DNA of 64,000 nucleotides, from assembly GCA_000165345.1 (NCBI GenBank), contig CM000436.1:672001-736000 (forward strand), read 5' to 3'. Shown piece by piece: positions 2,611-63,184 of the stretch (position 1 is the first letter of the stretch; each line of letters starts with the position of its first letter). The notes under the pieces are model-generated. The model made no database searches, was not told the DNA's origin, and worked only from the letters and a program-made list of their open reading frames with translations. The translations under genes were made by a program, and so were the position numbers.

Positions 2611-2662
2611 ATGAGAGCGCGTATTATAGGCGCCGTAGCCGTTTATGAGTAGATGGCGCCAA
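2611..2662. promoter_or_regulatory. GC-rich island with two E2F-like GGCGCC cores (2629-2634 and 2655-2660, the latter as TGGCGCCAA), in a divergent intergenic region.
   Basis: The sequence is ...agagcgcgtattataGGCGCCgtagccgtttatgagtagatGGCGCCaacgg. It sits between the start of the minus-strand gene ending at 2332 and the plus-strand gene starting at 2741/2941. GGCGCC-containing E2F-like elements are known to be over-represented in Cryptosporidium upstream regions. Confidence 0.4.
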
Positions 2663-2740
2663 CGGTACTAGCTGAAAGAGTAAGTATATATTTTAAAATG
2701 AAAGGAAAGGAAAAGGGTTCGTAAGAATGAATGATTGGAG

Positions 2741-2878
2741 ATGATCGATCCATTGGGAATCGGGAAAATAATCAATGATAAGTTTGCTCAAATTGGGGAA
2801 AATGTGTTAGGAACAGTTATTGATCAAATTGTGGACAATTCAAGTGCTCACTTAAGCAGTTTGAATGATTTCCAGTCG
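2741..2878 (+). CDS. Putative 5' exon (46 codons) of the large membrane-protein gene. It joins the main ORF in frame through a 53-nt intron at 2879-2931.
   Basis: ATG at 2741. A GTAAGT donor lies at 2879, immediately after a complete codon (...FQS). A ttatacTTAG acceptor ends at 2931. Exon 2 begins at 2932 (tcc tca att ATG aag...) in the same frame as ORF 2941..6894. The ORF track shows this exon as the separate 2735..2944 ORF. Confidence 0.35.
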
Positions 2879-2940
2879 GTAAGTTTGTGTGCGATTCATC
2901 GAAATAGCAAAATTTATTATTTTATACTTAGTCCTCAATT

Positions 2941-5900
2941 ATGAAGCTTGTACGTAAAGTTGCAGGGTCAAAGTTTTTAAACAAACAGCCAATAGTTGAA
3001 GTTGAGCCAAATATTTATGCAGTAAGGGACGAACAATCGGGTATATATAAATCTGTTCGTGACTCTAGGAGTTTGGGAGTTCTGACAGTCTCTATTGAGA
3101 GAGCAATTATCTCACCTATGGGATTTGATCGTAATATTCGGAATTTTATTACTAAAGAAAATGCAGAATGGGTTTTTGAATTGGCTTTGCAAGGCCAAAT
3201 GCTTGTAAGCCAACCTGTAAGCACTAAAGACTTTATATTGGAGATTCCAGTTAATAGTCCTATGCTTTTGTCCCCAACTAAGAGCTATGGGAATACTTCT
3301 TTAGCTTTTCTGGATGAGAAGCATGAATCAAGGCCAAGTTTTGGAGTTGAAAGTAGGAACTCAAGCGCAGAGAGAGAAAAGGAAAAGGTTTCTGGAGTAG
3401 GTGCCAGAGAGGTTTTCTTTAATTTCAAAGAATCTTTCCAAGTCACTGATATCTCTTCTGATATGAATTTGGATCTGATTTGTAGAGTTCCAATACAATG
3501 TAAACTTACAATAAATCAAAAATTTAACGAAGAAATTGTGGATGAAGATTGCTACTACTCTAAAAACTCTGGATCTATTTTTGTGAATGAATGTGATGAG
3601 GATTCTTCTCTTGTATCAGAAAACATTACTTCTACTAGCTCAGCCAATGCAGATTCTATTTCAAATTTGGGTTCCAACCCTCCAACAAATTTAAACCATT
3701 CTGTTAGTTTACGAATTAACCAAGAACAGAACAATTCATCTGGGACATCTTTTAAGCAGTATAAGATTATTAGAATTGAAAGAAATAAGCCAAACTGTAA
3801 AGAAATATTTGATAAACCGGATGGCGACAATCGCCCTTCTTCTCAGGAAATCCCCTCTCAAGATCAAGAATGGGAAGTCTTATATGAATGTATCCATTTC
3901 GGAAAGGTTACTATTCCAATTTCCTCTGTTTTTCAAGACAAACTTGCCGAACTACCCGTCTTGGACTATTCATTCTACAAAAATTCAACGTTTTATAAGG
4001 CAAATGAGAATCTAGTTTCTGTGTTTTGGAAATCAAGAAACACCAATTGTACTCAAGGCCATGAGAGTAATCTTTTGAAAAGCAATACTGTGGAAGAATG
4101 GACTTTGATTCATGGCAAAAAGGCGGACTCCTGTGATTCAATTGTTGTTAATAGGCCAAATGATTCAAACTTAAAAGATAGCCGAGCATTTCTAAAAGAT
4201 ATAGATCATGAAAGAGAGCCAAAATTAAGGTCCAGATTCAAAAGTGAGAGTAGAATGCATGATGGTTTAATCTCTTCTGGGAATGAAAAAAATGAAAGCA
4301 ATTTTTGTGAATATCAAAATAGAGTTTATAGTGATGAAAGCTCTCAATTTGAGGTCGGATCGAATTTCAAGCATTTAAATTGGTACCATTTATACCCAAG
4401 AACTAGTGAAATGGTTAAATATGTCAGGCCAGTGCCAGGAATCACAGAATACGGGCTTTCAAATCCAATAAAAACTTTAGGATTTATTCAGATCGGACTA
4501 AATTTTGAGACAGAGTGCTGTTCTAAGATTAGCCTTTTAACTAGCTCCTATTTGAGTATGGTAACTGAGAAGCCTATCACAAGGTGGATCCTTCCTTCAG
4601 GGTTTGAGCCACAGTATTTTCAGATGTATGCTGAAAGTTTAAAAATGTTACTAGAGCATTATCCGAGATGGATACCCAAATTCTTCTTCTTACTGAACTT
4701 CAGAATTCCGAGATCTAGGTTTGATAGGGTAATGATTTCCTTATTTTGGGCAATAATTACGTTTGGAGCTTTCAAGGCTAACAGTTTTTTCTTTTTTTCA
4801 TGGATTTTTATGGTTATCCTCCCATTATTAATCTCTTTAACATATAGATTTGGGTCGCAGATTGCTTCTAGAATCCATCAAGACTTCCTTACCAGAATTA
4901 ATATTGAAGAACAAAAGAGAAAGAGTATAACAAGTGCTCTCTCGCAAAAAGGTAATGCTAATATTAAACAGAAAAGTAATATTAGTCAAAATAATAAGAC
5001 GATGAATCTGATAAACTCTACATCTGGAAATATCTGGAAGATGTTCCAGCCTATACTAAATATTAAATATCACTCATCATTAATGATAGGCGATGGAGAC
5101 TTTATTGAGGAGAATATAGATGTAAAACCATTAAATAATGGCACAGGAAAAGAAAAGAAGGATTCTTCCTTTACCAAAATTGTGGATGAAATCTGTGAAA
5201 AGGACTTTTCTAATCTCATTCCCAAAGAAGTATACTTTGGTGATAAAGTAACAAGCAGAGAATACTGTACACAATACGATCTATCCAATGGGGACGGATA
5301 TATATGTTTGGCTAGAACATTAAATAACTCATTGTTAGGGAATAAGGAGAAAGGTAGAGAGGAAGAACTGAGAAGATTGAATTTATCGAACAATGATGCA
5401 TCAAATTTATCTCCACAGTTTGAAAAGCAAAAGTGGGAAAGAGCCCAAGAACATAAAGAAGATTTGAAAACAGAAAAATCAATGGAAGACAAAAATGATG
5501 AGGCAAGGTTTCGACAAAACCTACAAGGAAGTGGAGGAATTGTAGAGACCCCATTTGGAGAGCTAAGATTGGGTCTCAAAATTCCTTATGATAATAAGGT
5601 TGTATCTATTTTCTTTGATGATCAAGATTTGGAGCCTATTCAAACTCAGCTTTCTAACCTATTGGCAATAGTAGAACTTGTTCAGCAATCATTTGCAAGC
5701 TTTTCTACGCTTCTGATGAAGCTTAAGAACTCCCTTAATTTCGAGGATCCTCTACTTCCTTTTTTAACTTTGTCAATTCTTGTTATTCTTACTATTATAC
5801 TGAATCTGGGTCTCTATTTATTTAATCTTATCATGGGGAACCAGAAAATGGCATTCTTATTAAGAGGATTTCTTCTTATTAAGTTTATTCGTTGGGTTAT

Positions 5901-6894: not shown

Positions 6895-7162
6895 AAGGAT
6901 TAAATATTAATAAAGATGTTTAAAATTTCTTACTATATAAATTACGCATAACTGCTAAGTTCCAATAGATTAATTATTTGGAATTAAACTAAATATTTAA
7001 TTTTAACAATCGTTTGAATTGTAAAATTTCCTTTCAGTGAACATTTCTGTATAGAAGTAATAATGAGCTCGACCAATTCATAATCAGTGCAAATGAAGGA
7101 AATATTGTTATGAATTTAACTAAAGAAACGGATATTCAGTTAAATAAAATTTGTCTATACTG

Positions 7163-7423
7163 CTAATCATTACAAATTTTTTGATTATATGCCAAATTAG
7201 AAGAGAAAATTGACTTTGAAATCCACCTCCAGTAAATAAAGTAACAAAATACAATTATTAGAGCCATAAAAAGACCTGAAAAATACCATTTCTGCTTTTC
7301 TTCTTCATATGCTAAAAGGAAAAGCAAAGATATATAGATTACACAAGTTATTATGTAAGCCACTGCCACCCAAAATTTACTATATACTGGAATAGTTCCT
7401 TTAAGTTTGAATTGTGAACTCAT
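7163..7423 (-). CDS. Small (86 aa) two-TM membrane protein. It is hypothetical.
   Basis: The first ATG is at 7423; the track start at 7441 is TTG. Two hydrophobic helices (WVAVAYIITCVIYISLLFLLAY and FSGLFMALIIVFCYFIYWRWI) are separated by a short charged loop. It lies alone in a 1.6-kb AT-rich intergenic stretch. Confidence 0.3.
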   Translation of the reverse strand: MSSQFKLKGTIPVYSKFWVAVAYIITCVIYISLLFLLAYEEEKQKWYFSGLFMALIIVFCYFIYWRWISKSIFSSNLAYNQKICND

Positions 7424-8210: not shown

Positions 8211-8235
8211 ATTGGCGGGATGAACTGGCGGTACT
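8211..8235. promoter_or_regulatory. Canonical E2F-like element TTGGCGGGA followed by a second TGGCGG, about 300 bp upstream of the HRD1 start.
   Basis: The sequence is aaTTGGCGGGAtgaacTGGCGGtac. It is otherwise embedded in very AT-rich DNA. Confidence 0.35.
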
Positions 8236-8528: not shown

Positions 8529-10415
8529 ATGTCTCCTATTACATTGAAGCAATATGTTTTGCTTAGTTTCGGGCTACTTTTGGGGCTTTTTGTACATTTA
8601 TTAAGTGTATACGATTTTTACTTTTACCACATAATCATGCACATAACTATAACCAAAGCGTCCACCATGATAATTACAAATGCAGGTTTATTGACTTTAT
8701 ACTTTTTGGGTAAGGTTATTTTGAATATGTTTGTGGGAAGATTAAGAGATATTGAACTGGAAGAAATCATTGATCAAGGGCGAATGTTTTTATTAGATAC
8801 AATCTTTTTTTTGTTATTTAGTAGCCCAACAATAGATAATATAGAAGTTGGAGCAATGGTCCTTTCAAGATACATTACTCTTATTTTGGTTTTAAAGCTT
8901 TTACATTTAATTTCCCATATTCGAATTAACCACATGTTTGAATTAGACAGACCAAAAACTACTGCAATTGTTAGAATGGCAGCTTTGCTTAATATTCTCC
9001 TGATTATTGACATAAGTTTAGTTTTCAAGTATTATGGCCTATTGTCAAAAGATTCTACTCTGAGGTTGTGGGTATTTTTCGAGAGTGTTTCTTTGCTTGT
9101 TTCATGTAGCACTTCTATTGGTAAATACCTCGTTCATGTTGTAGATTTGAAGCTCCAAGCCATTCAATTATTAATGAGACAAGAGGAGGATGGAACCCCT
9201 GAACAAGGAAATACTCATTCTTCGGGAATGCAAGCTCATAACTTTGTATGGTCGAATAAGAATGCTATATTATTTTATTTGGAGGTGTTTGGCGATATAT
9301 GCTCTTTAATTACTTACCTTCTCTTCATTATTCTCTTCCTTGTGCTAAATCCTTCCAGAATTCCATTATATATTATGGGAGATATCTTCCACGTCTTAAA
9401 AGCTTTGTACAGCAAGCTATCATCATTCAGGAGATATAGAAAGCTCACAAAAAATATTGAAACCAGACTTCAGGAAGCTACACTTGAAGAGATTGAGAGA
9501 ATTGATACTTGTATTGTTTGTAGGGACACTTTGTATATTGGCTCAAAAAAGATTCCTTGCGGTCATGTATTCCATCTGGATTGTCTAAAATCTTGGTTTA
9601 TTCAACAGCAAACTTGTCCAATATGTAGGGCTCCCATAACTATCAGAGATGAAGAGCCTGAACATTCAGCAACTACTGCAGAAGAAGATAACAACTCTCC
9701 ACAAATACCAGAGGACCAGGATGAAACTAATGATATTAAAGATCCCACTTCTTCAGACCAAGCGAAACCCAACATCAATTCAGAGCCTACTAGTGCACCA
9801 TCATCTTCAGCGTTTAATTCAAATGAATCCGGGAGCTCAACTGATGTTAGCTCTGACAGTTTTAAGAAAATCTTCAAGAACTGGATAGTAAGTGAGCATA
9901 AAGCTAAACCTGTTGAAGAAACAACATCAACAAGAATGGCGAAGGACTTGAAAGAAACCAAATTTCAGATATCGAAACACCCTTTGTTTAAAAGCAAGCG
10001 TGATGACTTATATAGAAAGGTTTCAAAAGCTGCAAATAGAGGGGATCATATAAATAGCCTTCCTCCTCAGTTACTTTCACTACAACCTCAAATTTTACTA
10101 GAATTAAATAAAAATTTGGAACAGAGAACATTTGGAAGTGAATATGGAAGTCAAGAGTTTTCTGAAATGATGAGCAAAATGTATAAGAAAAATGCAGATA
10201 TTTGGTTGAATATGGTTAGCGAGCTCATCAAAGCTAAAGAACAAAATTGTATCCAACATTCGGTACCAATTGAACGAAAAAGCAGTATTCACATACAAGG
10301 AGAAAGTTTATCTAATATGTATGAAAGTAGTTCTAGGGCAGACCCCTTGAGAAATCTAATGGATGCTGTCAATAATCAGCTTAACGAAACAAAAAATATT
10401 AATAAGGCTGCTTGA
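8529..10415 (+). CDS. HRD1: HRD1/synoviolin-type ER-associated-degradation RING-H2 E3 ubiquitin ligase. It has N-terminal TM helices, a RING-H2 domain and a long low-complexity C-terminal tail.
   Basis: FLGKVILNMFVGRLR matches the Hrd1 TM1-2 motif LLGKVMGKVFFGQLR. The RING CIVCRDTLYIGSKKIPCGHVFHLDCLKSWFIQQQTCPICR is nearly identical to the Hrd1 RING, including the WFxxQQTCPxCR signature. The start is placed at ATG 8529 because the track start 8523 is GTG. Confidence 0.85.
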   Translation: MSPITLKQYVLLSFGLLLGLFVHLLSVYDFYFYHIIMHITITKASTMIITNAGLLTLYFLGKVILNMFVGRLRDIELEEIIDQGRMFLLDTIFFLLFSSPTIDNIEVGAMVLSRYITLILVLKLLHLISHIRINHMFELDRPKTTAIVRMAALLNILLIIDISLVFKYYGLLSKDSTLRLWVFFESVSLLVSCSTSIGKYLVHVVDLKLQAIQLLMRQEEDGTPEQGNTHSSGMQAHNFVWSNKNAILFYLEVFGDICSLITYLLFIILFLVLNPSRIPLYIMGDIFHVLKALYSKLSSFRRYRKLTKNIETRLQEATLEEIERIDTCIVCRDTLYIGSKKIPCGHVFHLDCLKSWFIQQQTCPICRAPITIRDEEPEHSATTAEEDNNSPQIPEDQDETNDIKDPTSSDQAKPNINSEPTSAPSSSAFNSNESGSSTDVSSDSFKKIFKNWIVSEHKAKPVEETTSTRMAKDLKETKFQISKHPLFKSKRDDLYRKVSKAANRGDHINSLPPQLLSLQPQILLELNKNLEQRTFGSEYGSQEFSEMMSKMYKKNADIWLNMVSELIKAKEQNCIQHSVPIERKSSIHIQGESLSNMYESSSRADPLRNLMDAVNNQLNETKNINKAA

Positions 10416-11726: not shown

Positions 11727-11778
11727 CTTACATAAAACAAACGCTCTTAGCAAGCAAGCTTTACAAAATAAAAACTAC

Positions 11779-11787
11779 TTGGCGCCA
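11779..11787. promoter_or_regulatory. E2F-like TTGGCGCCA element about 55 bp upstream of the 10509..11726 gene start.
   Basis: Direct reading: aaactacTTGGCGCCAttaatacc. Confidence 0.35.
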
Positions 11788-11823
11788 TTAATACCGACGC
11801 ACTTCCCACATGTAGGTGGTTAG

Positions 11824-13140
11824 CTAATCAAAATAAATAGTCTCCAGCTCACTGATTATTCCCGAAACCCTATCAAATATCAGCTTTAGCTTATTACTTT
11901 TAGTTATTTCTTCGTGAAAGATGTTTTCCCTAGCCTCAATTGGAATATCTAACTTCCCAACTTTGTTGAAAATCTCTACGCCCACATTTATACAATCTGA
12001 GATCAAATTGCCTAAAATTGTCATCTGTGATACAGAACCTTCTCTAAATGTATAGACAAGGGTCCCAAACATTAAGGAGGATCTATTTTCTCCAAACTTT
12101 CTGTATGTGTGCCTGATCTTGCACTCCGTTAAAATTTTAGAAATCAGCTCGCACGGTACTCCGAGCCTTTCGCAATCAACTGAAACAAGATGTGTATCTG
12201 TTCCATCTCCAAGTAGAGGAATTCCTGAGTCAAGCATTGTCTGCGCTAGAACAGCAGAGTTATCAAGTGCTGCTGCTACAAACTCACTAGTTCGAGAAGT
12301 TAACATTCCTTGAATTTGGACAGCAAATGACCCAATTTGATGATTATGAGGGCCTCCTTGGAGGCCTGGAAATACTGCGGAGTTAACTTTCTGAAATAAT
12401 CCAGGATTTTTGCTGTTGTTCAACATCAAGAAGCCACCTTTAGGACCACCCAAACTGCTTTGAGTGTTAGAATAAATGATGTCGCAATATCTGTATGGAT
12501 TGTTGTCCTCCCTTCCATACCTATCAAATGATATCAAAAGTGCAATTTCGCTAATATCAGCGACTAAAAAGATTTTAAATTCATTGCAAATCTCACTAAG
12601 CAGTCTGTAGTCTATGAATAATGTTAATACATCGGATGGAACAAGTAACAACTTGGGCTTTAATATCTTACATTTCTCCCTCAGGTCAACTATATCAAAC
12701 CCCCTACCTTTTTTATCCAAATTATAATATTCAACTTGGTAATAATTTTCCAATACAGTGTCAGAATCACCCCTAATCCTCAAAATTCGATCCCCCTTAT
12801 TCAGTAATCCCATACAGATGGCCAACTCAGCATGGCTTCCACTATAACACTGGATATTAAATAGCCATTCGTCATTGCTTTTTTTGTCTAATTTTAGAAA
12901 TTGTTTTAATCTACTTGCGCAGAGCGTTTCTATCTTATCAATAACGTGTGTTCCACCATAATACCTTGTTCCAGGAAAACCCTCTGAATATTTGTTTGTA
13001 AGGATACTCCCAAGGACTTTTCTCGCAGCATTAATCATAACATTTTCCTTGGGGTGTAAGTTTAAATGAGAATTCTGAAAATCTTTTTCCTTATTAATAA
13101 TATTGAATAACTCTTGATCAGATTCAATTGTTGTATTCAT
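11824..13140 (-). CDS. Divergent serine hydroxymethyltransferase-like paralog. It has the SHMT fold but has lost the PLP-binding Lys and the HLTHG motif, so it is probably a pseudoenzyme or regulatory subunit.
   Basis: It conserves LTNKYSEGFPGTRYYGG (SHMT: LTNKYSEGYPGxRYYGG), NIQCYSGSHAELA (VNVQPYSGSPANLA), NSAVFPGLQGGPHNHQIG (FAVFPSLQGGPHNHAIA) and GDGTDTHLVSVD (SGGTDNHLVLVD). Where SHMT has TTTHKTLRGPR, this ORF reads SNTQSSLGGPKGG, with no HK. The GGHLTHG motif is absent. Confidence 0.7.
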   Translation of the reverse strand: MNTTIESDQELFNIINKEKDFQNSHLNLHPKENVMINAARKVLGSILTNKYSEGFPGTRYYGGTHVIDKIETLCASRLKQFLKLDKKSNDEWLFNIQCYSGSHAELAICMGLLNKGDRILRIRGDSDTVLENYYQVEYYNLDKKGRGFDIVDLREKCKILKPKLLLVPSDVLTLFIDYRLLSEICNEFKIFLVADISEIALLISFDRYGREDNNPYRYCDIIYSNTQSSLGGPKGGFLMLNNSKNPGLFQKVNSAVFPGLQGGPHNHQIGSFAVQIQGMLTSRTSEFVAAALDNSAVLAQTMLDSGIPLLGDGTDTHLVSVDCERLGVPCELISKILTECKIRHTYRKFGENRSSLMFGTLVYTFREGSVSQMTILGNLISDCINVGVEIFNKVGKLDIPIEARENIFHEEITKSNKLKLIFDRVSGIISELETIYFD

Positions 13141-14229: not shown

Positions 14230-14520
14230 TTCACAATTTAGATTTAGAGTAGTTCTTTTATTAATTACTTAAAGAATTTATTGCATTTTATTTCTTGTTT
14301 AATTTAATTATGAGTAATATAGCAATCTCTCCAAACATTCAAACTCTCCAATTCTGACTATCAGGTTTAAACACATACAAAATAGCCTGAAGGATTTCTA
14401 AAGTCTAAACTTGAATAACTTATCTAACTTAATCAGATTTTAACTTTTCTGACTTTTTCACTGGCTATCCATGTATTTTGTGAGGTACAGATAAATTTTG
14501 CGAGCTTAGAAAATGATGCT

Positions 14521-14530
14521 TTGGCGCCAA
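14521..14530. promoter_or_regulatory. Perfect palindromic E2F-like site TTGGCGCCAA, about 290 bp upstream of the SNARE gene start and about 340 bp upstream of the 14871 gene.
   Basis: Direct reading: gatgctTTGGCGCCAAtcgc. Confidence 0.4.
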
Positions 14531-15358: not shown

Positions 15359-16696
15359 CTAATACTTATCTACGATAGAAACAAATTCAAACGATGAGGC
15401 AAACTTTCGCACTGTTTGCCTGATATTCTCTATTGCTGGAGAGGCCTTAATATTAGAAACAAACTCTGCAAGAGTCTCCCCATCCTTTTGAATATCTCGA
15501 GCAGTAGTTAAAACTTCTACAATTATCCTTGAAACGAATTTGAAATCATCCAACTCCATCCCTCTGCTCGCAAGGGCTGCAGTTCCAAGTCTGACGCCAC
15601 TGCAATTCATAGTTCTCCCATCACAAGGTAAAGAACTTCTACTTGTTGAAATTTCGCATACTTCTAGTGCTTTCTCAGCCTTAGCCCCAGAAATGTTCAA
15701 TGATCTTGTATCTATTAGAATTTTGTGGGAATCAGTTCCATTTGTAAGAATCTTGATTCCAGACTCCTCGAGCAATTTGCAAAGCAATTGAGAGCTTTCT
15801 AGCACTCTACTTGCATATTTAACCCAAGAAGCAGAAACTACTTGTTTCAGTTGGAAACAAAGGGCTGCAACTTGGTTGAAATGAATACTAGACTGAATTT
15901 CTTTAGAAACTGACTCATCAATCTTAACTCTGATCTTGGACTCTACGTCCTTTCTGTAAAATATTATTGCTGACCTTGGTCCTCTTAATGTCTTGTGAGA
16001 CGTTGTTGTAATGAAATCTGCGTAGTCTTTGGGTGACGGGTACTTCCCTGCAACCACCAAACCAGAGTAGTGAGCGATATCTACCATCAGGTAGGCCTTC
16101 ACTTTGTCGCAGATATCCCTAAACCTCTTAAAGTTGATCATTCTAGGATACCCACTAGCTCCTGCTATTATCATCTTTGGTCTAAATAGTATTGCATTTT
16201 CTTCCAACTTATCGTAATCTATCACTCCTTCTAAATCAGTTACATAAGGGAGTGACTCAAAATAGTGAGATGAACAGTTAACTCTCTTCAAATTTGTATA
16301 GTGTCCGTGAGTCAGGTGGCCTCCATGTTGTAATGACAATCCCATTATTCTATCATTAGGTTTTAATACTGCATTTAATACTGCAAAATTTGCAGGAGAG
16401 CCACTATGAGGCTTTACATTAGCACCCCATACTTCAGGATCTAGTCCATATGCTTTTAAGGCTCTTTCATTTGTGAGCTCTAATAGTTCTTGTGCAGAAG
16501 TTGAGTTTAATTCCATATTTTTATCATTATTAAACATTGAGAATGTACTTGACAAGCTGTCCAAGACTCCCTTCGATACAAAGTTTTCGGATGCTATCAT
16601 TTCTAGTCCATTAATCTGTCTATCATATTCTTCATTGATTAGCTCATACATAATGGGATCCAGCTCTTTTAATGATTTTTCCTGTAAAAATACCAT
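15359..16696 (-). CDS. SHMT: Serine hydroxymethyltransferase, a canonical PLP-dependent enzyme.
   Basis: All SHMT hallmarks are present: LEMIASENFVS, GGHLTHGHYT, VDIAHYSGLVVAG, TTTSHKTLRGPRSAIIF containing the Schiff-base Lys, and GTDSHKILIDTR. It starts with ATG at 16696. Confidence 0.9.
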   Translation of the reverse strand: MVFLQEKSLKELDPIMYELINEEYDRQINGLEMIASENFVSKGVLDSLSSTFSMFNNDKNMELNSTSAQELLELTNERALKAYGLDPEVWGANVKPHSGSPANFAVLNAVLKPNDRIMGLSLQHGGHLTHGHYTNLKRVNCSSHYFESLPYVTDLEGVIDYDKLEENAILFRPKMIIAGASGYPRMINFKRFRDICDKVKAYLMVDIAHYSGLVVAGKYPSPKDYADFITTTSHKTLRGPRSAIIFYRKDVESKIRVKIDESVSKEIQSSIHFNQVAALCFQLKQVVSASWVKYASRVLESSQLLCKLLEESGIKILTNGTDSHKILIDTRSLNISGAKAEKALEVCEISTSRSSLPCDGRTMNCSGVRLGTAALASRGMELDDFKFVSRIIVEVLTTARDIQKDGETLAEFVSNIKASPAIENIRQTVRKFASSFEFVSIVDKY

Positions 16697-17104
16697 TTCT
16701 TAAGTGATTATTTATTACAGTTCTGTATTACACGGTCTTTATATTCCTAAATCTTTAGTAGCTTCACAAATTTTTATTTCTAGCGTTTAAACAAAGCTAT
16801 ATTCGAATTTCAACTTTGTTTTTTATATTTTGGTAATTGTGTTCAATTATTAAACTTTTTTGTCCAAATAAAGTACATGCGCCATGTGTGGGTAATTTAT
16901 CAGTAAATCGTTGAATGAATGCTAACCCAGAAATTTTTCTAATTTATAAAAATATTATTCTCTAAAAATTACTATGATCTCTGAATAAATTTCGCTCTTT
17001 AGATTTCTCAAGATAACTAGGACAGTACTAATCTACCAAAGATAGAATTTTATTACAAATCAATTATTATTGTCCTACTAGAAAAACCGGAAATGTATTG
17101 AAAA

Positions 17105-32089: not shown

Positions 32090-32290
32090 ACCTATAAATC
32101 AAATTTGCCTTGACTCTCCGCTCGTCAAAATACTGCAAATTTAATCCAGAATATTGTATTTGGCTATTACTTTATATTTTAAATATTCATTAATATGTAT
32201 TTCCAAATGTTCTACTCGAAATGAAAACTATAAATTCCTTTGTATTCGCCTCTTCATATTTGCCCCCCTTTAAATAATTGTATGACATTT

Positions 32291-32297
32291 GGGCGCC
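32291..32297. promoter_or_regulatory. E2F-like GGGCGCC element about 200 bp upstream of the giant gene start, in the divergent region shared with the 32793 gene.
   Basis: Direct reading: gacatttGGGCGCCtgaatc. Confidence 0.3.
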
Positions 32298-38107: not shown

Positions 38108-38624
38108 TTTTATTGATGTTTATTACCATTTTTTTAATTATAACTAAAATGAAAAGTATCTTACCATCTTTATTACAAATTTTTAGTTCGGCGGTTTGGA
38201 AATCAAAATATAATTTTGATTTATTGATCCTAAATGTGTTTTATTCTTAACGAAAGATGTTAGTAATAAGGAATTATCCGAACCAAAAGGAAATAAATAT
38301 AAAAGCAGTGATTTACTATCTTATCAAAAATTAAAATAATAAAATATTACAAGCCTTTTTAATATTCAGGGTATTTTTACTTGATTAGCATGTAATTTGC
38401 ATGCAAACTAATTAGATTTTAATGAAATTAAATTATGATTTTAGAAATAAAACAAGCAAAAAAATAAATTAAAACTTTAAGATTTTAACTTATTCGTATT
38501 TTATTTGAAAAATAAAAATGTTTTGAAGGCGCTGTAATATAATTCAGTTAAAATTAAAACTAAATGAATTTGTAAATAGGTTAATCAAAGAGATAAGATA
38601 TGATTTTGGAGATTGCTCATAAAT

Positions 38625-46221: not shown

Positions 46222-46337
46222 TGGCGCCTATTAGTTTGGATAAAATACATATTAACGAGTAGATAACAGTGCTGTGAGTAAATAGAGAATTAAATAAACA
46301 TATTTAAAAGTTTCAAACGATGTAGAAAAGGCGCACC
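46222..46337. promoter_or_regulatory. Bidirectional promoter region between the M16C peptidase and SET1. It contains TGGCGCC (46222-46228) and AGGCGCACC (46329-46337).
   Basis: It lies in the 249-bp divergent intergenic region. GC-rich E2F-like cores sit in an otherwise AT-rich spacer. Confidence 0.35.
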
Positions 46338-46389: not shown

Positions 46390-49300
46390 ATGACGGTAGA
46401 AAGTGCTAGGAATTCAAAGAGAAAGGGTGCCAATACTAATTTTAGAGACGGGGAACTTGTTGGAGAGAATAAAAAGAGAAGATGCTCTCATTCCTCATCA
46501 AGCAAGAATTCTAATTTGCAATCTAAAAGAAGGGTTCAGTCAAGATCAAGGAAAAATGAAAGCTGCATGAATGTTTTTGTTCAAGCCGATGACAATAATG
46601 AAACTGAATTAGTTAAACTGAATACAATAGAGATAAAAAATTTAAAGGATGGGTTTAAATATGTAGGTTATAGATGTAGAGTTGCTGTATCCAGACAAAA
46701 AACGAAGGAATTAAAAAACAACTCTCCTAATGCATTCAACTGGGTGGAGGGAATAATTAAATTTTGGGATCCAAAATTTAAGTTATTCTTTATACACTTT
46801 TTGCTTTCACCTTCAATAAATTCATTCAGAAACATTAACAATACTCCCAAACATGAATGGAAATACTTGGCTACTCAAAATAATTCTCCCCCAGCAAATA
46901 CTGATATAAGAAATCTTGTACTTTCACCTTTTGCAATTGATAGAGGCTGGTTTGATCCAAATCCAATAACTATGAAATTATATGGGAGTCTTCCTTTAAA
47001 AGATATCTCTTCTATTTCATTTCAAGACAAAGCGGAACTAACTAAATCTGAAAAATTTTCCAGCGAAGTCTGCACAAGATGTAAATTACCAATAGTTGAG
47101 GAAGAAGTAATTTACTCATGTGAGCTTTGTTCCAGGAAGTTTCATCAAAATTGTGTAAATATGAGCAATACAAGTATACAGGATCTAAAAGATTCAGATA
47201 TTACTACATTGAGACAATACAACTCCCCAAATAACTTGGAATTGTTATTAATTGCAAATGAGCATAACCAATATATCCGTGAAAGAAAAAGACTTTGGAA
47301 GCGTAATTATAATGTATCTCACGATTCTGAAGGAAATTTAAGTTTATATAACAAGTGTTTTAATGATGGGCAACTTCCATATGATCTCGTTGACGTAGAA
47401 GAACTGGAGAGAGCTCTGCCAAATGAAGTAAAAAAAATCATTTTGGAAAATTATAATATGTCTCATACTGGTATAAGAAAATTACTCTCCAAATTGCCCG
47501 ATAAAATGGGTTCTATAATTGGTGATCATCAAGTTAAGCTTTTGTGCAGGAATTACAGATATAACAAAAGAAATAAGTCAATTATGCTCACACAGTCATA
47601 TAAGGAAGAAGACTATTCAAGTACAATCACATCATTGGAATCGACACCTTCAAAAATTTGTTCGAGAAACGAGCCTAGTGTTCAAAAAAGTGATTTAATT
47701 GATGATATTGATTCAAAATCGGTTTTTAATAAGGGCGAATATAATTCCGAATCATCTTTTATTGAAACTATGGAATTGGAAAAAACTGATTTCACAAAAG
47801 ATGAAAATAATCCTATTCAAATATCTATAGACGATGCAAAAGACGAGCAGCTAAAAACAAATGAGTACAAATATAGATGTAAGGACTGTATACCCTGTAT
47901 TTATTGTAAAGAGCCACTATTGCGCATTCCGGTGATTCTTAAACCAAACGAATTACCAAATAGATCGTTGGTATATTCACAAATTCCTACAAAGTTGGAG
48001 GAATTTGTTGTTTGTGGAACTTGTGGGATTTGTTACCATGGTAGCTGCGGAAATTCTTTTGTTCCACCATTGTTATTTGGTGGAAATAATTTCAATTGTT
48101 CCAATTGTTGTAAGTGTATACACTGCGGATATAGAGATAATGGTTTCATGGATTATGCTTCTTGGGACTCAACCTTTTCGAGCTGTATTAGGTGCTGTAA
48201 AGGTTTTGAAAGGGGGCAATTCTGTTCAATTTGCAGAAAAATATGGACATCTTCATGGGAAGGAGAATGGCTCCAATGCGACATTTGCAAGTTTTGGGTC
48301 CACTATGATTGCGATAAGGATTTAAATGAGCCAATAGAATTCTATTCAAATGTTAAAAACCTTTATAACTGTCCAGCATGTAGAAGCAATGATAACTCAG
48401 TTAAATATCAAAGGATTCTGGATCATTTTATTTGTTTGGACAAAAACAAAGACTTTGCCTCAACTCCTCTTCCTTCATACCAAAATTATTGGAAAGTGGT
48501 AAAAATTCCAATGGATATTATGACGGTCACAAACAATTTAGAAAGTAAAAAGTATGATTCAGATGAATATTCATTTATTAGGGATATATTCAGAATAATA
48601 TACAATGCCCAAATATCTCATATGCCTAACCATAGGATTTTCAAACTTGCAGCAAATATTTTAAAGAAAATAACCCATTTATTTAAGCTCTTATTTGGGG
48701 AAAATTTATTGTTGAGATTTTTCAACGTTATAAAAAAAGAGGAATCTTCGATGTCAATTTTGGTAGAACAAATAGATACTAATGATCTTAGAAGTAAAAT
48801 AGGCGATGAAATATTTGAAAATACAAATTCAAATATAAATGTTAAGCTTTCCCAAGATTATAGAGCTAACAATTTATCATGTGAGAACAACGTTGAAAAT
48901 GAGCTCGCTATTGATCTAGCCGAAGCTGTGTTAAATCATACAAAGCTGAACTTAGATATTAGCGGTAACTTGAGAAATACAATATCCAGAAAGCAATTTT
49001 CATGCTTAAAGGGCGATAATAATCTGAATTCAGTATTTGGAAAGCTCTTTGCTGAATTTAAGAAGTGCACAATTTGCCAACAAAAAAGTGATGAACTCCT
49101 TCATTGCTTAAAATGCGGAGTAAATATCCACTCTAAGTGTTCAGAAGTAGTAAATGGTTCATTTGTTTGCAACTCATGTACAGCTTGTCATATTTGTTCT
49201 GAGCTAATGGCTGATTCAAGTATACCAGTTATTTCATGTTATACATGCAATAAAAGAGTACATTATACATGTATTTGGCAGGATTATGAGAGGTTTATAG

Positions 49301-52300
49301 AGCAATCAAAATATTCAGACATACCTTCAAGGAATAAGAAAAGAAATGAAGGTGGGTATAATTTTGCTAATTTATCCGGAAATTTGAAAGATAATAGGGA
49401 TTATATCTGTCTTTGGAAAATTATTTCTTCCACTGCATCTCCAAACAAATCTAAAGTTTTGATTAATTCTCCGCTTACAGCAGTTTTTGGCAAAGGGTAT
49501 TATCAATATTTGATCAATGAGATTTATTTATGCACAGAATGCTTTGAAGCAAAGAGATATTTACATTCGAATCTGTTTATGCAGAAGTACGCAAATGAAT
49601 ACAACAGATTCTTATTTACTAAGGTGGTAGAGTTCCAAAAGTTGATTGACGAAATCATTACAAAAGATTTTTCAGAAATATATTTTAGTGAGGGAACAAA
49701 AGAAAGAGAAATAAATAAAATTTTAGAGACAATTTCAAGGGTAGAGTTGAAGCCTTTTGATATGTCTTTCAAAGAAGAAAATATTATCATTTGTAATTTA
49801 TGCTCTGATCGCTTTTATTGCAAAGATTTTGAGGATCTAGTTGAAATTGCGAATGATAACGCTATTTGTTCGGTTTCCCTCAATTACATTTGTAATAACT
49901 GTAATAAATTGTCAAATAAGATTTCAAAAAATCAATACTATAAGAAAAATGTTGAATTACCACAAGCAAACATTATTACAATGGCACAAGAAAGCTTGAA
50001 AGAACCAACATATCCAAACAGTAATTTTCCTTTGATTTTAAATACATTGATTTCTGCATCACAATTCAGAGTAACTTTATCTAAGGACGTTGATCTACTT
50101 CTAAGAGTCATTTTGAGCCCTTTTCTTGATCAATCAATCTCAGTTATAAAGAAGTATGAATTGTACTTAGAAATTGATAAAGAAAATATTAGAAGCGACA
50201 TAATTAATAAGTATTTCAATTCTGTATATTTTGCAAGAATAATAAAACAGACTTTACAATCTTCTTTATTACAATGGTTTCTGTTTTATATCCACCAAAA
50301 TGGCTTATTTGATTTTTCCAACTTGAGAAAAGACTATCTTCAACACTTTTACAAACAAAATAATGTAAGCTTGGATGATTTGATTCAAAACAACACTATA
50401 TCCGTAATTATTGCCTCTATTGAAAAGATGGTCCTTTCTAACGACTTGAATAGTAAAACTAACCAAAATAAATTGATTAAAAATAATCTGTACGATCCAG
50501 ATTACTTGTCTTTTCTAGGATTATATTCAAATTTATTATTTCCAGCAAGTAATTTTCAGATGTTTGGATTAGGGAACTTAAACTTGATGAATTACCAAGC
50601 TATAATTGATACAAAAATGTACCTTGAAATTAATGATTCTTTTAAAGAATATGTATTGAATTACCAAAACTCGCAAAGAAATTCTATTTTAGTTACTAAA
50701 CATAAAGCTTTGAAGGATGAAATAACGCAAGGATTAACTCTAATAAAAGACCAAATAGAAATGGACAAACAAGAATTTAAATTACCTAAATTATCATTTT
50801 TTGTATTAATTTATAGCTTCATTCTAAGCAAATTAAGCAAAATAGATGATAATTTCAGCGGTGTCGATTCTAATAGATGTAAATATTGTGGAAGGAGCCA
50901 AAACTTATTACTTGGGGATCAGTTGATTAATGTTCTTGAAAATGTTGCTCTACACAAAGAATGCGTATTATGGTCTCTCCCATTTGTTTTAGAACCAATT
51001 TTAAATAATTTAGATATGGGTTATGAGTCAAAGTTTGAAACAAATAAAAAAAAAAGTGAGATTTATTCACCTAAGTACCCCACTTTCGGAAGTATTTCTT
51101 GGCCAATTCTCAGGAAACCAATTCACGTAGATATCAATGACATTATAATAACATTGAACGATTTAAACGCTCTTAAATGTTTCTTCTGTGGGAATTCGGG
51201 TGCTACCATCAAATGTTCTGGAAATGATAAATGTTTTAAATATTATCATATTGATTGTATTTTTAAAGGTTTTCAAAAGAATAATTTTGAATATTATTCC
51301 AGTTACCAATTTAATAATATATTTCGAGAGGAAAGCAATAGTAATTTAGATTTGAGTATTAGTACAGATAAGGAATCGATGATTCATATTAGATTAAAAT
51401 ATAGAAGAGTTTGGTGTAATGAGTGCTGGGGAATCTACAAAACAATAATTGAGCCAGAAACTAGTTTTTCAGAGGGATTAACTGGCGGAATCTTAAATAC
51501 ATTTGTTAGTATGTTATTGGTCGATATTAAAATTGTAAATAATTTTGAATTTCAAGAGAGATTACAAATAGTTAATAAAAACACAATTATTGATTCGTTT
51601 ATAGAAAAGATAATTACTGTTTTTAGTACAAAGAAAAAATATAACTCAAAGATAAAGACCCTAATTCAGAAATTAAAAAGAATCCGTGATTCTATTCAAT
51701 ATAGCGATTTAAAATTTGAATCAAATATAGTCAATAATTCAATTATTTTATTGGACCCAGGTGTAATTATTGAAAATAAGGATTTCGTAGATGGGAAAGA
51801 AATAATGATTTTCCTTGTTAACTATAGGGCACTTCGAATTTGGAAGAGTTGCAGAATAATAAATAATATATTTGAAATCGACAATGCTCTTTCTTTATAT
51901 CTCTGTTCAACATTTGAGATTAATGGAAGCGTCAGATTTCAAATAGATTGGATCCCAACTACCCATTTCGAAATGAAGAAAGTGAATGAATGGTTGATTA
52001 CAAATGATTTTAAAGATGATGAATTCTGGAGTAAAATTTACATTAATGGAATTTGCCATAAATTATTCGGCATTCCATTGCTTAGAGATATAAATTTGAA
52101 AAATTTATTTAACAGTTTTTCTGAATTACTATGCTCAGAATCTCTTAAAGATGTAAGCCGTAGTACATTTGAATGCATTATTTATCCAAATTATTTATCA
52201 AGTAATTCTTACTTGGACTACTCTAACACAAAAAAAATGCAATTCGTAAGTGATTGTGATGCAAGATCACAAATATTCTTTGGGTTTAGAGAGGAATTCA

Positions 52301-53124
52301 TTTACAGTTTGGTCAAACGTAAAATAGACAGATTCAGTATAAAAAAGCTCATTTCTGTATTTTACTATAGGAAGATATTCGCTGATATAATGCATCCTGA
52401 GTTATGGACTAGTCACAGGCAATATCCTTACCCTGACAAGTTGTCAAAGTATAAAGGATTCGAATTTGAATACTGTAAACTTGGAAGAAATGAAATGAAA
52501 GGAGGCAGAATAAACGAGGATTTATTTACTATCATACATGCAGGCAATAATAAAGATCCTGATAACGTGGAATTGATGAATTCTATTCACCAAAGTTTCC
52601 AAGAGTCATCTAAAAGAAATAAGATTCTGCTGGAGGATATGGGTCCCACAAAGTTATATAGATATTTAGACTCACTTCCTTATGATAAACGCTTAAATAT
52701 CAAGAAATCAAGTATTCATGGATTTGGGCTCTTTGCAAAAGAACTGATTAAAACAGGAGAGCCAATTATTGAATATGTTGGCGAGCTAATACGTAATAGC
52801 GTTGCAGATAAAAGAGAAAGTCTTTATAAGTCAAACGGAAATCGGGATGGGTCATGCTATATGTTTAGGCTAGATGAATCCAGCGTAATAGATGCGACTA
52901 ATATTGGAAATCATGCCAGATTTATGAATCATTGCTGTGATCCAAATTCAATTTGTAAAGTTATAAGTATTGATTCGCAAAACAAGCATATTGTAATATT
53001 CTCCAAAAAAACAATTAATAAGGATGAAGAGATTACTTATGACTATCAGTTCAATGTTGAGGAGGCTTCAGAGAAAATTATATGCCATTGCGGTGCAAGC
53101 AATTGCCTTGGAAGGATGAACTAA
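46390..53124 (+). CDS. SET1: SET1/MLL-family histone H3K4 methyltransferase, 2244 aa. It has multiple PHD/ePHD fingers, a bromodomain-like module, and a C-terminal SET plus post-SET domain.
   Basis: The C-terminus GFGLFAKELIKTGEPIIEYVGELIRNSVADKRESLYK...YMFRLDESSVIDATNIGNHARFMNHCCDPNSICKVI...ITYDYQF...ICHCGASNCLGRMN aligns to the SET1/MLL SET domain, including the terminal CHCGA.NC...MN. The PHD-type Cys/His clusters are CTRCKLP...CELCSRKFHQNC, CTICQQKSDELLHCLKCGVNIHSKC and CFFCGNSGATIKCSGNDKCFKYYHIDC. The bromodomain-like segment is YWKVVKIPMDIMTVTNNLESKKYDSDEYSFIRDIFRIIYNAQ. Confidence 0.85.
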   Translation: MTVESARNSKRKGANTNFRDGELVGENKKRRCSHSSSSKNSNLQSKRRVQSRSRKNESCMNVFVQADDNNETELVKLNTIEIKNLKDGFKYVGYRCRVAVSRQKTKELKNNSPNAFNWVEGIIKFWDPKFKLFFIHFLLSPSINSFRNINNTPKHEWKYLATQNNSPPANTDIRNLVLSPFAIDRGWFDPNPITMKLYGSLPLKDISSISFQDKAELTKSEKFSSEVCTRCKLPIVEEEVIYSCELCSRKFHQNCVNMSNTSIQDLKDSDITTLRQYNSPNNLELLLIANEHNQYIRERKRLWKRNYNVSHDSEGNLSLYNKCFNDGQLPYDLVDVEELERALPNEVKKIILENYNMSHTGIRKLLSKLPDKMGSIIGDHQVKLLCRNYRYNKRNKSIMLTQSYKEEDYSSTITSLESTPSKICSRNEPSVQKSDLIDDIDSKSVFNKGEYNSESSFIETMELEKTDFTKDENNPIQISIDDAKDEQLKTNEYKYRCKDCIPCIYCKEPLLRIPVILKPNELPNRSLVYSQIPTKLEEFVVCGTCGICYHGSCGNSFVPPLLFGGNNFNCSNCCKCIHCGYRDNGFMDYASWDSTFSSCIRCCKGFERGQFCSICRKIWTSSWEGEWLQCDICKFWVHYDCDKDLNEPIEFYSNVKNLYNCPACRSNDNSVKYQRILDHFICLDKNKDFASTPLPSYQNYWKVVKIPMDIMTVTNNLESKKYDSDEYSFIRDIFRIIYNAQISHMPNHRIFKLAANILKKITHLFKLLFGENLLLRFFNVIKKEESSMSILVEQIDTNDLRSKIGDEIFENTNSNINVKLSQDYRANNLSCENNVENELAIDLAEAVLNHTKLNLDISGNLRNTISRKQFSCLKGDNNLNSVFGKLFAEFKKCTICQQKSDELLHCLKCGVNIHSKCSEVVNGSFVCNSCTACHICSELMADSSIPVISCYTCNKRVHYTCIWQDYERFIEQSKYSDIPSRNKKRNEGGYNFANLSGNLKDNRDYICLWKIISSTASPNKSKVLINSPLTAVFGKGYYQYLINEIYLCTECFEAKRYLHSNLFMQKYANEYNRFLFTKVVEFQKLIDEIITKDFSEIYFSEGTKEREINKILETISRVELKPFDMSFKEENIIICNLCSDRFYCKDFEDLVEIANDNAICSVSLNYICNNCNKLSNKISKNQYYKKNVELPQANIITMAQESLKEPTYPNSNFPLILNTLISASQFRVTLSKDVDLLLRVILSPFLDQSISVIKKYELYLEIDKENIRSDIINKYFNSVYFARIIKQTLQSSLLQWFLFYIHQNGLFDFSNLRKDYLQHFYKQNNVSLDDLIQNNTISVIIASIEKMVLSNDLNSKTNQNKLIKNNLYDPDYLSFLGLYSNLLFPASNFQMFGLGNLNLMNYQAIIDTKMYLEINDSFKEYVLNYQNSQRNSILVTKHKALKDEITQGLTLIKDQIEMDKQEFKLPKLSFFVLIYSFILSKLSKIDDNFSGVDSNRCKYCGRSQNLLLGDQLINVLENVALHKECVLWSLPFVLEPILNNLDMGYESKFETNKKKSEIYSPKYPTFGSISWPILRKPIHVDINDIIITLNDLNALKCFFCGNSGATIKCSGNDKCFKYYHIDCIFKGFQKNNFEYYSSYQFNNIFREESNSNLDLSISTDKESMIHIRLKYRRVWCNECWGIYKTIIEPETSFSEGLTGGILNTFVSMLLVDIKIVNNFEFQERLQIVNKNTIIDSFIEKIITVFSTKKKYNSKIKTLIQKLKRIRDSIQYSDLKFESNIVNNSIILLDPGVIIENKDFVDGKEIMIFLVNYRALRIWKSCRIINNIFEIDNALSLYLCSTFEINGSVRFQIDWIPTTHFEMKKVNEWLITNDFKDDEFWSKIYINGICHKLFGIPLLRDINLKNLFNSFSELLCSESLKDVSRSTFECIIYPNYLSSNSYLDYSNTKKMQFVSDCDARSQIFFGFREEFIYSLVKRKIDRFSIKKLISVFYYRKIFADIMHPELWTSHRQYPYPDKLSKYKGFEFEYCKLGRNEMKGGRINEDLFTIIHAGNNKDPDNVELMNSIHQSFQESSKRNKILLEDMGPTKLYRYLDSLPYDKRLNIKKSSIHGFGLFAKELIKTGEPIIEYVGELIRNSVADKRESLYKSNGNRDGSCYMFRLDESSVIDATNIGNHARFMNHCCDPNSICKVISIDSQNKHIVIFSKKTINKDEEITYDYQFNVEEASEKIICHCGASNCLGRMN

Positions 53125-55468: not shown

Positions 55469-55469
55469 G

Positions 55470-57920: not shown

Positions 57921-61847
<3,927 letters not shown>

Positions 61848-62053
61848 ATTCACTCACTAGTTAATACCTTTGGTTTTTAGAGAGTCTTTAAGTGCTTTTT
61901 TAATTTTAATATTTTCTTATGTTACTCAGACTAGTAAAATAAACATTGCGCGAATTTTTTTGTTTTCTGTAACTAATGAGGGCCAAAAGCACTGGAGGCT
62001 GAATATAACAAAAGAGTTTAAGATAAAGTAAAAAAATAGAGTGGGTTCAAGTA

Positions 62054-63011
62054 ATGTACCTGGATAAGAAAATACTATATTGGTGTACAATTCCCGTTAC
62101 CATATTAGTTTTTTGTGGAGTTATTTTAAGAACAATTCTTCAAACATCCTCGCAAAAAAAGAAAAAGAAAAGGTTGCCTTTTAAGAATGAGAAAAATTTG
62201 AATGATTGCTTGATGTCCACTCAACGCGTGTCTTTGAGAAATCAAGAGTTCCAAAATCACCTCAATAGGAGTGCATTAATAAGGTCTAGAAGATTTTTAA
62301 TTCCAGAAGATTCATTTTTGAAAAGAAAGCTGTTTTATTGTGAACTAGAGAGTGGATATTTTCATAACTCTCCAGAATCTCCAAGCCCATTGGCTGCACT
62401 CTCAAACCCAGGTATGTTTACGTGCTTAATTCTTATGACTTCATAATTTTTCAACAATTTAGACCACTCTGCACTTACAGATATGATGAAAAACCAATTT
62501 GGGTTTCTGATTTTGAATGGAGGGATGGGATACTTAGTCAACACATTATTTTCGGGATTTCTAGTTGTTTATATTCCTTTCCCACTTTCTTATTCATTTA
62601 AGGGAATGCTTCAAAGAGGAATAGAATCAAATCCAAATATAAGCGCCTCATTTTTGTCAGCTCTATCATTTTATTTCATTGCATTACTCTGTTGTGGAGA
62701 GGTTGTTCATCTTTTCCTTTCTATTATTGGGTTTGAAGGAGTTTCAGGTCCGCAAATTGATCTACCAATGATGAATCAGCAAGGTAAGTAAATCATAAAA
62801 TTTTCTTAAAAAAAAAAATTTGCCGTAGTTTCTCCTCTGGGGAATCAAACAGATTACTCTAAGCTCTTTAAAGAAGAGGTAGAGTCATTACAGATTACTG
62901 TAAGTTTTTGATAGATAATTGCAAGGCATTTTAACTTAAATTTACCTACAGCCAATAGAATGCGCGCTAGACCAAATGGAAGAGATGGCAATAAAACTGC
63001 TAGAAATTTGA
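62054..63011 (+). CDS. EMC3: ER membrane protein complex subunit 3 (EMC3/TMEM111), about 263 aa. It has four exons: 62054..62411, 62481..62783, 62829..62899 and 62952..63011. The introns are 69, 45 and 52 nt.
   Basis: The translation ALIRSRRFLIPEDSFLKRKLFYCELESGYFHNSPESPSPLAALSNP|D|MMKNQFGFLILNGGMGYLVNTLFSGFLVVYIPFPLSYSFKGMLQRGIESNPNISASFLSALSFYFIALL aligns to human EMC3 [37 protein letters not shown]...[83 protein letters not shown]. The introns have GTATGT/GTAAGT donors and YAG acceptors, and phases match at every junction. The spliced C-terminus TDYSKLFKEEVESLQITPIECALDQMEEMAIKLLEI matches EMC3 [33 protein letters not shown]. Confidence 0.7.
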
Positions 63012-63176
63012 GTTAACGTGTACACGGATTGAATTGCTCTATTTTTCGTGTGCTAGTTAACGAATTTTTTAATTGCTATAAAATACTAACCTATTTCTGT
63101 TTTAACCCCGTTGAATTTTAAAAGCTTCCAAATAACTTTTGAATTGGTGTTTTTTGGATTCAATTGCATGTATAAT

Positions 63177-63184
63177 GGCGCCCC
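63177..63184. promoter_or_regulatory. E2F-like TGGCGCC core followed by a C5 run, in the intergenic region downstream of EMC3 and upstream of the next gene.
   Basis: Direct reading: tataaTGGCGCCccccaaaac. Confidence 0.25.

Follow-up and report, generated by a model that had tools for sequence, protein, structure and literature searches.

Short GC-rich islands built around the hexamer GGCGCC stand out in the AT-rich intergenic DNA of a 64,000-nucleotide stretch of GenBank assembly GCA_000165345.1 (contig CM000436.1, positions 672,001 to 736,000). This whole stretch is referred to here as the window and is numbered from its first letter. The islands raise the questions of what they are, how many promoters carry them, and whether the genes beside them belong to one regulatory programme. 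The window is part of chromosome 8 of Cryptosporidium parvum and spans approximately cgd8_2530 to cgd8_2790, with long, mostly intron-less open reading frames (ORFs) tightly packed on both strands and a GC content per kb of 26–39%. An earlier note on the same DNA, made from the sequence alone, had named Cryptosporidium as the source, which was borne out by an ORF at 15359-16696 (minus strand) that is 100% identical to the cytosolic serine hydroxymethyltransferase (SHMT) of C. parvum Iowa II. Our results show that the islands are instances of an E2F-like upstream motif described for C. parvum in earlier publications.

Enrichment of GGCGCC in intergenic DNA

GGCGCC occurs seven times in the window (2629, 2655, 11781, 14523, 32292, 46223 and 63177). 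Dinucleotide shuffles of the whole window gave an expected count of 0.83, and seven was reached in 0 of 100 shuffles. All seven sites are located in the 10.06 kb of intergenic DNA, and none lies within the 53.9 kb of genes (binomial P = 2.4e-6). The word is hence strongly enriched upstream relative to coding sequence, the opposite of the outcome that the earlier note had named as refuting its reading. When all 1,672 strand-collapsed hexamers present intergenically were ranked against dinucleotide shuffles of intergenic DNA, GGCGCC came first, with seven sites observed and 0.15 expected (47-fold, Poisson P ~3e-10), followed by GCGCCA (9 vs 0.67 expected) and AGGCGC (6 vs 0.61 expected). Control hexamers composed entirely of G and C (GCCGGC, CCGCGG, GGGCCC, CGGCCG, GCGCGC and CGCGCG) had 0–1 site each, and CpG as such showed no intergenic enrichment in the window. 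The ApiAP2-type word CATGCA was found 12 times intergenically (3 expected), often near E2F-like sites.

In an AT-rich window with only seven sites, chance or composition, a dispersed repeat, or RNA genes could in principle account for them. The shuffles, the unbiased hexamer ranking and the flat GC palindrome controls rule out the first of these. The 25-bp flanks of the seven sites resembled each other as little as random pairs of intergenic sequence do (0.33 vs 0.34 identity), which shows that they are unrelated and that the sites are not copies of a dispersed repeat. RNA genes and internal tRNA promoters were likewise ruled out, as Rfam and ARAGORN (tRNA) searches gave zero matches anywhere in the window. 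Together with the conservation of cores amid diverged flanks described below, these results leave an artefact of any such kind with virtually no probability. Given the ranking, the GC controls, the unrelated flanks and the lack of RNA gene matches, the enrichment of GGCGCC is real and specific to that word.

The ten motif instances listed in the earlier note were all present, with coordinates correct to within 1 bp. Three were offset by 1 bp, the true starts being 8212 for TTGGCGGGA, 16877 for ATGCGCCAT and 63176 for TGGCGCC. Its figure of 75–80% AT for the intergenic background was too high (mean intergenic AT content of 74%). Its statement that the islands match an E2F-like element known to be over-represented in Cryptosporidium agrees with the published consensus (PMC3734150, PMC12246861). 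Oberstaller et al. 2013 reported the E2F motif as 5'-TGGCGCCA-3', alongside motif 3, [C/G]GCGC[G/C], and motif 4, GGCGGG, and found E2F-like motifs to be the most over-represented upstream family in C. parvum (PMC3734150). The published core, [C/G]GCGC[G/C] or GGCGGG, is matched in the window by the seven GGCGCC sites and one GGCGGG site, while 16877 (TGCGCC), 38528 (GGCGCT) and 46329 (GGCGCA) are near-matches only and lack the core.

According to PMC3734150, Bankier et al. 2003 first noted the motif, and Mullapudi et al. 2007 described it upstream of replication and glycolysis genes, although neither the term E2F nor the string GGCGCC is used in Mullapudi et al. 2007. The E2F motif was also the single most prominent one in peaks from an assay for transposase-accessible chromatin with sequencing (ATAC-seq) of sporozoites, with more than half of the peaks being bidirectional promoters (Xiao et al. 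2025 preprint). This association is genome-wide and not specific to the sites in the window, and the spacers between genes of polycistronic transcripts were also enriched for the motif (2025 preprint). A 2025 review assigned [A/T][C/G]GCGC[G/C][A/T] to two E2F and two DP genes (PMC12246861), namely cgd1_1560 and cgd6_1430 (E2F) and cgd7_3650 and cgd8_1850 (DP) (PMC12246861, 2025 preprint). Pfam scans of the window identified no E2F_TDP domain, and no E2F or DP gene was located inside it.

With these islands, inspection of raw sequence alone has correctly recovered the putative cis-regulatory element that is most abundant in C. parvum. What is new here is the positional conservation of the window sites over four to six Cryptosporidium species and the turnover between consensus forms, with nothing new in kind. 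Such positional conservation was unreported in the literature examined, except for the C. hominis comparison section of PMC1779779.

Conservation and turnover of individual sites

Syntenic loci were compared for the SHMT region (Cryptosporidium sp. chipmunk genotype I, C. ubiquitum, C. canis, C. felis and C. andersoni), the FAD-monooxygenase region (chipmunk genotype I, the Logan assembly, C. canis and C. andersoni) and the cgd8_2550 region (chipmunk genotype I, C. ubiquitum and C. canis). Gene order was kept across all of them. GGCGCC recurred across species in the promoter intervals where it occurs in C. parvum, at near-equal distance from the genes, and was found within no gene of these loci in the five other species (17–19 kb of genes per full locus; C. 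felis locus 11.9 kb).

A MAFFT alignment of 14 promoter intervals (6,133 bp, four species) provided the background, in which 33% of bases and 2.2% of hexamer windows were fully invariant. Across the six GGCGCC sites assessed, 32 of 36 bases were invariant in the four species, compared with the 33% background. Three sites were fully invariant (11781, 14523 and 46223), two kept five of six bases (2629 and 2655), and one kept four of six (32292). At a rate of 2.2%, at least three fully invariant sites among six would be unexpected (binomial P ~2e-4). Furthermore, five of the 20 invariant runs of at least 8 bp contain the motif core, whole or in part, and cores were frequently conserved islands amid diverged flanks. 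These phylogenetic footprints mark the sites as functional elements, and on the evidence of the alignments we conclude that the GGCGCC sites assessed are promoter elements under purifying selection.

The divergent genes cgd8_2540 and cgd8_2550 have two sites in the interval between them. The distal GGCGCC of this pair (2629..2634) is 112 bp upstream of the cgd8_2550 start codon (2741) and 297 bp from that of cgd8_2540. Five of its six bases are invariant in four species, and chipmunk genotype I, C. ubiquitum and C. canis all retain a GCGC core where their sequences align with it. The proximal site (2654..2661) is TGGCGCCA, which matches the published consensus in full. It is located 86 bp upstream of the cgd8_2550 start codon within the conserved block AGATGGCGCCAACGGTACTAG; its 3' flank is 100% invariant, as are five of six core bases. 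The ORF-based start of cgd8_2550 (2941) leaves out a 5' exon, as the annotated 1,366-aa protein starts at 2741 and continues, after a short intron, into the long ORF. Because this first exon starts at 2741, both sites stay upstream, and an intragenic position for them is ruled out.

The site upstream of HRD1 (cgd8_2560) is a GGCGGG-type variant, TTGGCGGGA followed by TGGCGGT (8212..8232, plus strand, ~310 bp from the start codon). The sequence aligned to the C. parvum TTGGCGGGA (8212) is GGCGCC in chipmunk genotype I, C. ubiquitum and C. canis, and the HRD1 promoter interval of C. andersoni also holds GGCGCC. Farther along, TTGGCGCCA (11779..11787) is located 55 bp upstream of the cgd8_2570 start codon, in a 97-bp spacer (11727-11823) that follows the cgd8_2580 stop codon. 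Its core is invariant at all six bases in four species, with flanks that are merely 0–20% invariant, and GGCGCC also occurs in the C. andersoni spacer. Reading 11727-11823 as an intron or as coding sequence is ruled out by orthologue annotation in four species, which places two genes here with a spacer of 87–137 bp.

In the divergent interval between cgd8_2590 and cgd8_2600, the perfect palindrome TTGGCGCCAA (14521..14530) lies 294 and 348 bp from the two start codons. At this site TTGGCGCCA is invariant in four species, and the aligned position in C. felis is CCCCGCCAAA. Since C. felis reads CCCGCC where the four others read GGCGCC, CGCCAAA is invariant in five species. Approximately 35 bp from the palindrome, in the same promoter, is a second, highly conserved element, TGTACCTCACAAAATACATGGAT (14477-14489, minus strand, in a block at ~14440-14500), with a core, TGTACCTCAC, that is invariant even in C. 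felis and matches no motif family that we recognized.

Upstream of the SHMT gene cgd8_2610 (182 bp from its start codon), an invariant 17-bp block, CATGCGCCATGTGTGGG (16876..16892, minus strand), includes ATGCGCCAT. The block combines a half-site-like GCGCC with CACACA (ApiAP2-type) on the minus strand, and ATGCGCCAT itself is without a [C/G]GCGC[G/C] core. Because CACACA shares the invariant block, the E2F assignment of ATGCGCCAT at 16877 is ambiguous.

The site TTTGGGCGCC (32289..32297) is located between the divergent genes cgd8_2650 (the giant gene, 203 bp) and cgd8_2660 (501 bp). Chipmunk genotype I and the Logan assembly have the identical sequence, and C. canis reads TTTGGGCGGT. The surrounding sequence (32262-32330) holds a composite conserved module of ~50 bp, in which a poly-C run (a G-box on the other strand) and TGACATTTGGGCGCCTGAATCTT are followed by TACATGCAA, which resembles TGCATGCA. 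A GGCGCT variant (38528..38533, plus strand) lies 97 bp upstream of the start codon of the FAD monooxygenase gene cgd8_2700; AAGGCG is invariant there, and GGCGCT is identical in three of four species.

Two further candidates are close together. TGGCGCC (46222..46228) is located in the 249-bp divergent interval between the M16 gene cgd8_2720 (83 bp) and the SET gene cgd8_2730 (167 bp), and GTGGCGCCT is invariant here in four species. The nearby AGGCGCACC (46329..46337, plus strand) was conserved in none of three orthologues (per-base counts of 3, 1, 0, 0, 0 and 0). It is probably a lineage-specific or chance match rather than a functional member of the set. The last site, TGGCGCC followed by CCCC (TGGCGCCCCCC, 63176..63186), is 385 bp downstream of an EMC3-like gene (62054-62791, treated as one gene) and 729 bp upstream of the next start codon (63906). 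It shares a 1.1-kb ORF-free interval (62792-63905) with a GCGCGC at 62962, and this interval may represent an unannotated 5' exon, a long 5' untranslated region (UTR) or a non-coding transcript.

Exchange between GGCGCC and GGCGGG was seen at orthologous positions of three promoters: that of HRD1, that of cgd8_2590/cgd8_2600 in C. felis and that of the giant gene in C. canis, where the 32292 site reads GGGCGG (TTTGGGCGG). As aligned species carry one form in place of the other, the two are interchangeable, and they correspond to the pair of E2F consensus forms published as motifs 3 and 4 (PMC3734150). This turnover fits the prediction of a single binding specificity of the TTTSSCGC type.

Motif-bearing promoters and the question of co-regulation

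Gene identities were assigned from protein matches. Pfam supports the earlier labels for HRD1/synoviolin (cgd8_2560, 8529-10415), two SHMT paralogues on the minus strand (cgd8_2580, 11824-13140, and cgd8_2610, 15359-16696), an M16 insulinase (cgd8_2720, 42535-46140) and a SET/PHD/bromodomain protein (cgd8_2730, 46390-53124). The giant-gene label also stands, for a 3,488-aa protein (cgd8_2650) with no Pfam domain match. The label "SNARE" gained no such support, with no Pfam match in exon 1 of C. parvum or in the chipmunk genotype I orthologue; a SNARE-like heptad/coiled-coil region and a C-terminal tail anchor are visible in the second exon. The SHMT paralogues are 2.2 kb apart, and both are retained in all Cryptosporidium species examined, C. 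andersoni included. The 438-aa cgd8_2580 product covers only positions 3–372 of the Pfam SHMT model (252 bits, compared with 409 bits for cgd8_2610).

Exact or near-exact cluster members supplied the locus tags of the 405-aa (cgd8_2570), 878-aa (cgd8_2620) and 428-aa (cgd8_2660) genes. We found no paper that ties SHMT to a cgd8 number; cgd8_2610 is listed as cytosolic SHMT, and cgd8_2550 as "apicomplexan specific membrane protein", in Table S2 of Oberstaller et al. 2013 (PMC3734150). The remaining cgd8 numbers were inferred from gene order between these anchors, at ten per gene.

Gene models refined by orthologue annotation yielded 18 promoter-bearing intervals (8 divergent and 10 tandem). Strict GGCGCC was present in six of them (4/8 divergent and 2/10 tandem). 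A relaxed set, allowing GGCGGG, TGCGCC, GGCGCT and GCGCC variants, raised this to 10 of 18 by adding the GGCGGG at 8214 and near-matches at 16878, 38528 and 56674. The earlier claim that the motif marks most intergenic promoters consequently fails with the strict word and holds only with the relaxed definition. Sites were 55–350 bp from the nearest start codon, save that at 63177 (729 bp). Convergent, promoter-free intervals had zero sites in every species, but as these intervals sum to <1 kb, a test for depletion is powerless. The cores GGCGC, GCGCC and GGCGG were absent from the short tandem intervals at 21349, 34080, 36421, 42317 and 61848 and from the divergent intervals at 19742 and 54197.

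Two E2F-core-free promoter intervals, the divergent Atg3/cgd8_2620 interval and the Nse2 promoter, contain a palindromic TACCGGTA/CCGGTA element (19839-19846, 21436-21441 and 21469-21476), which was also found at 2662-2667 and 8229-8234. The CCGGTA-type element is invariant in four species at 19841 and 21436, and CGGTAC directly adjoins the E2F-like cores at 2655 and 8227. Counts of CCGGTA were five intergenic and four genic (P = 0.007, weak statistics), and TACCGGTA/CCGGTA may be a second promoter motif. Additionally, an invariant 16-bp run, TTGAAATCCACCTCCA (7216-7231), is located in the unusually long, 1.6-kb ORF-free interval between cgd8_2550 and HRD1, distant from both start codons, with further conserved runs at 7279-7288 and 6960-6967. 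The 16-bp run could be an unannotated small exon, part of a non-coding transcript or a 3' UTR element.

E2F/DP controls S-phase genes in animals and plants, and the earlier note took the motif to signal a shared cell-cycle or replication-stage programme, in which SHMT, HRD1, the giant gene, SET, M16 and others would be co-expressed. E2F and DP transcripts are highest early in asexual development (PMC3734150, 2025 preprint), the first reports placed E2F-like motifs upstream of subsets of replication and glycolysis genes (PMC3734150), and cgd8_2550 and cgd8_2600 share expression cluster 53. This proposal was nonetheless not borne out by wider comparison. The E2F-like motif occurs upstream of 161 of 200 expression clusters (PMC4117751), and its over-representation, upstream of approximately 161–163 of the 200, extends to all peak times without any particular expression pattern. 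Motif-bearing genes of the window were spread over at least five of the clusters in Table S2, among the window genes listed there: cluster 53 (cgd8_2550 and cgd8_2600), 50 (cgd8_2570), 52 (cgd8_2610), 72 (cgd8_2660) and 4 (cgd8_2720). Moreover, only one gene of the window, cgd8_2620, groups with replication genes (cluster 88, which includes CDC45 and a DNA polymerase subunit), and the interval upstream of it is free of E2F-like cores. We therefore regard a dedicated cell-cycle regulon as very unlikely. The motif is too widespread to mark a single co-regulated gene set, and its presence clearly provides no basis for inferring co-regulation.

E2F/DP as candidate binding factor and comparison with known systems

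The motif is used by a sizeable proportion of genes, whatever their temporal profile, so it acts as a general, widely used promoter element and not as the signature of a single cell-cycle regulon. We consider it quite probable that the sites are conserved promoter elements bound by E2F/DP. In this model, short palindromic elements at fixed positions 55–350 bp upstream of start codons, often common to two divergent genes, would be bound by E2F/DP winged-helix heterodimers, with each subunit reading half of the GCGC core. The extended form is (T)TGGCGCCA(A), with GGCGCC as its core and GGCGGG as an interchangeable variant. The site would act close to the promoter and independently of orientation, and the bound heterodimer would keep the promoter accessible and active. 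Promoter opening through E2F/DP binding is, in our estimation, the likely mechanism, given the motif similarity, the interchange of GGCGCC and GGCGGG, and the abundance of the motif together with the retention of E2F/DP in this genus alone. Both the role of E2F/DP as binding factor and an activating effect of the element on transcription are inferred.

Several observations weigh against this model. The W-core-W flanks of the published 8-mer are present at only four of the seven sites, and T at position -1 is a modest preference (8 of 14 half-sites). Eight of the 18 promoter-bearing intervals are without an E2F-like core, so the element is not obligatory for each promoter. The literature searched contained no binding data (electrophoretic mobility shift assay, protein-binding microarray, chromatin immunoprecipitation, or cleavage under targets and release using nuclease) and no mutagenesis for Cryptosporidium E2F/DP, and C. 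parvum is without Rb and most E2F partner proteins (PMC3734150). Very few Cryptosporidium regulatory components have been validated by experiment (PMC12246861), and in the DiCre paper the "E2F" gene supplies only a promoter. Finally, the FAD-monooxygenase region of the gastric species C. andersoni shows no E2F-like core across eight intervals, while GGCGCC occurs in three of its SHMT-region intervals. The C. andersoni pattern shows motif turnover at greater evolutionary distance, and suggests that in the gastric clade lineage-specific turnover is substantial or the motif is used differently.

Some of the same observations would suit a conserved and functional promoter site that has another protein as its reader (a zinc-finger, Myb or unrecognized factor) or that acts mainly as a sequence-intrinsic chromatin or boundary element. 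The lack of binding experiments in the literature searched and the absent Rb pathway leave room for such a reader, as does the fact that the commonest form, GGCGCC, often occurs without the TTT flank of the canonical TTTSSCGC. In the window, TTT-type flanks were present only at 32289 and partially at 8212, 11779 and 14521. On the other hand, the specificity of E2F/DP fits the core and its palindromic symmetry, and also the exchange of GGCGCC for GGCGGG. The only apicomplexan genus with reported over-representation of the motif is also the sole keeper of E2F/DP (2025 preprint, PMC12246861). Many over-represented upstream motifs, including the E2F-like one, are not AP2 binding motifs, and the E2F-like motif falls outside those bound by the tested ApiAP2 domains (PMC4117751). 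Overall, a different reader appears unlikely, and E2F/DP remains the preferred candidate.

More tentatively, GGCGCC may be the main determinant of core promoters and open chromatin in Cryptosporidium, with Rb-less E2F/DP as a general, pioneer-like promoter factor and not a stage-specific switch. E2F/DP would then organize bidirectional promoters and also promoters lying inside gene pairs that are tightly packed or polycistronic, of which the cgd8_2580/cgd8_2570 spacer would be an example. The site-by-site conservation and GGCGCC/GGCGGG turnover fit this possibility, and the idea was already raised by the ATAC-seq study (Xiao et al. 2025 preprint).

Compared with canonical animal and plant E2F/DP sites (TTTSSCGC; TTTGGCGGG, TTTCCCGCC), the elements in the window share a symmetric, GCGC-centred core and a promoter-proximal position. 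They also share the GGCGGG variant (8212, TTGGCGGGA) and T-rich 5' flanks at 32289 (TTTGGGCGCC) and 14521 (TTGGCGCCAA). They differ in that the fully palindromic GGCGCC dominates and is a putative binding site known from sequence, that the motif serves most expression classes and not an S-phase regulon, and that Cryptosporidium has no Rb/pocket-protein pathway (PMC3734150). ApiAP2 cis-elements (TGCATGCA, CACACA and the G-box) are likewise short, over-represented upstream motifs of the same intergenic regions, but they differ from the E2F-like element in sequence, and the latter is not among the over-represented motifs bound by the C. parvum AP2 domains tested (PMC4117751).

The closest counterpart is the published E2F-like family of C. 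parvum itself. Organism and core are the same, and in both cases the sites lie upstream of genes at varying distances and orientations and are often part of bidirectional promoters. The site in the 97-bp cgd8_2580/cgd8_2570 spacer parallels the enrichment reported for polycistron spacers (2025 preprint). The motif is relevant to the control of transcription in this parasite because Cryptosporidium is the sole apicomplexan genus to keep E2F/DP. The useful gains from the window are the site-level signature of purifying selection with interchange of consensus forms and the negative result on inferring co-regulation, and with the published family there is no difference in kind.

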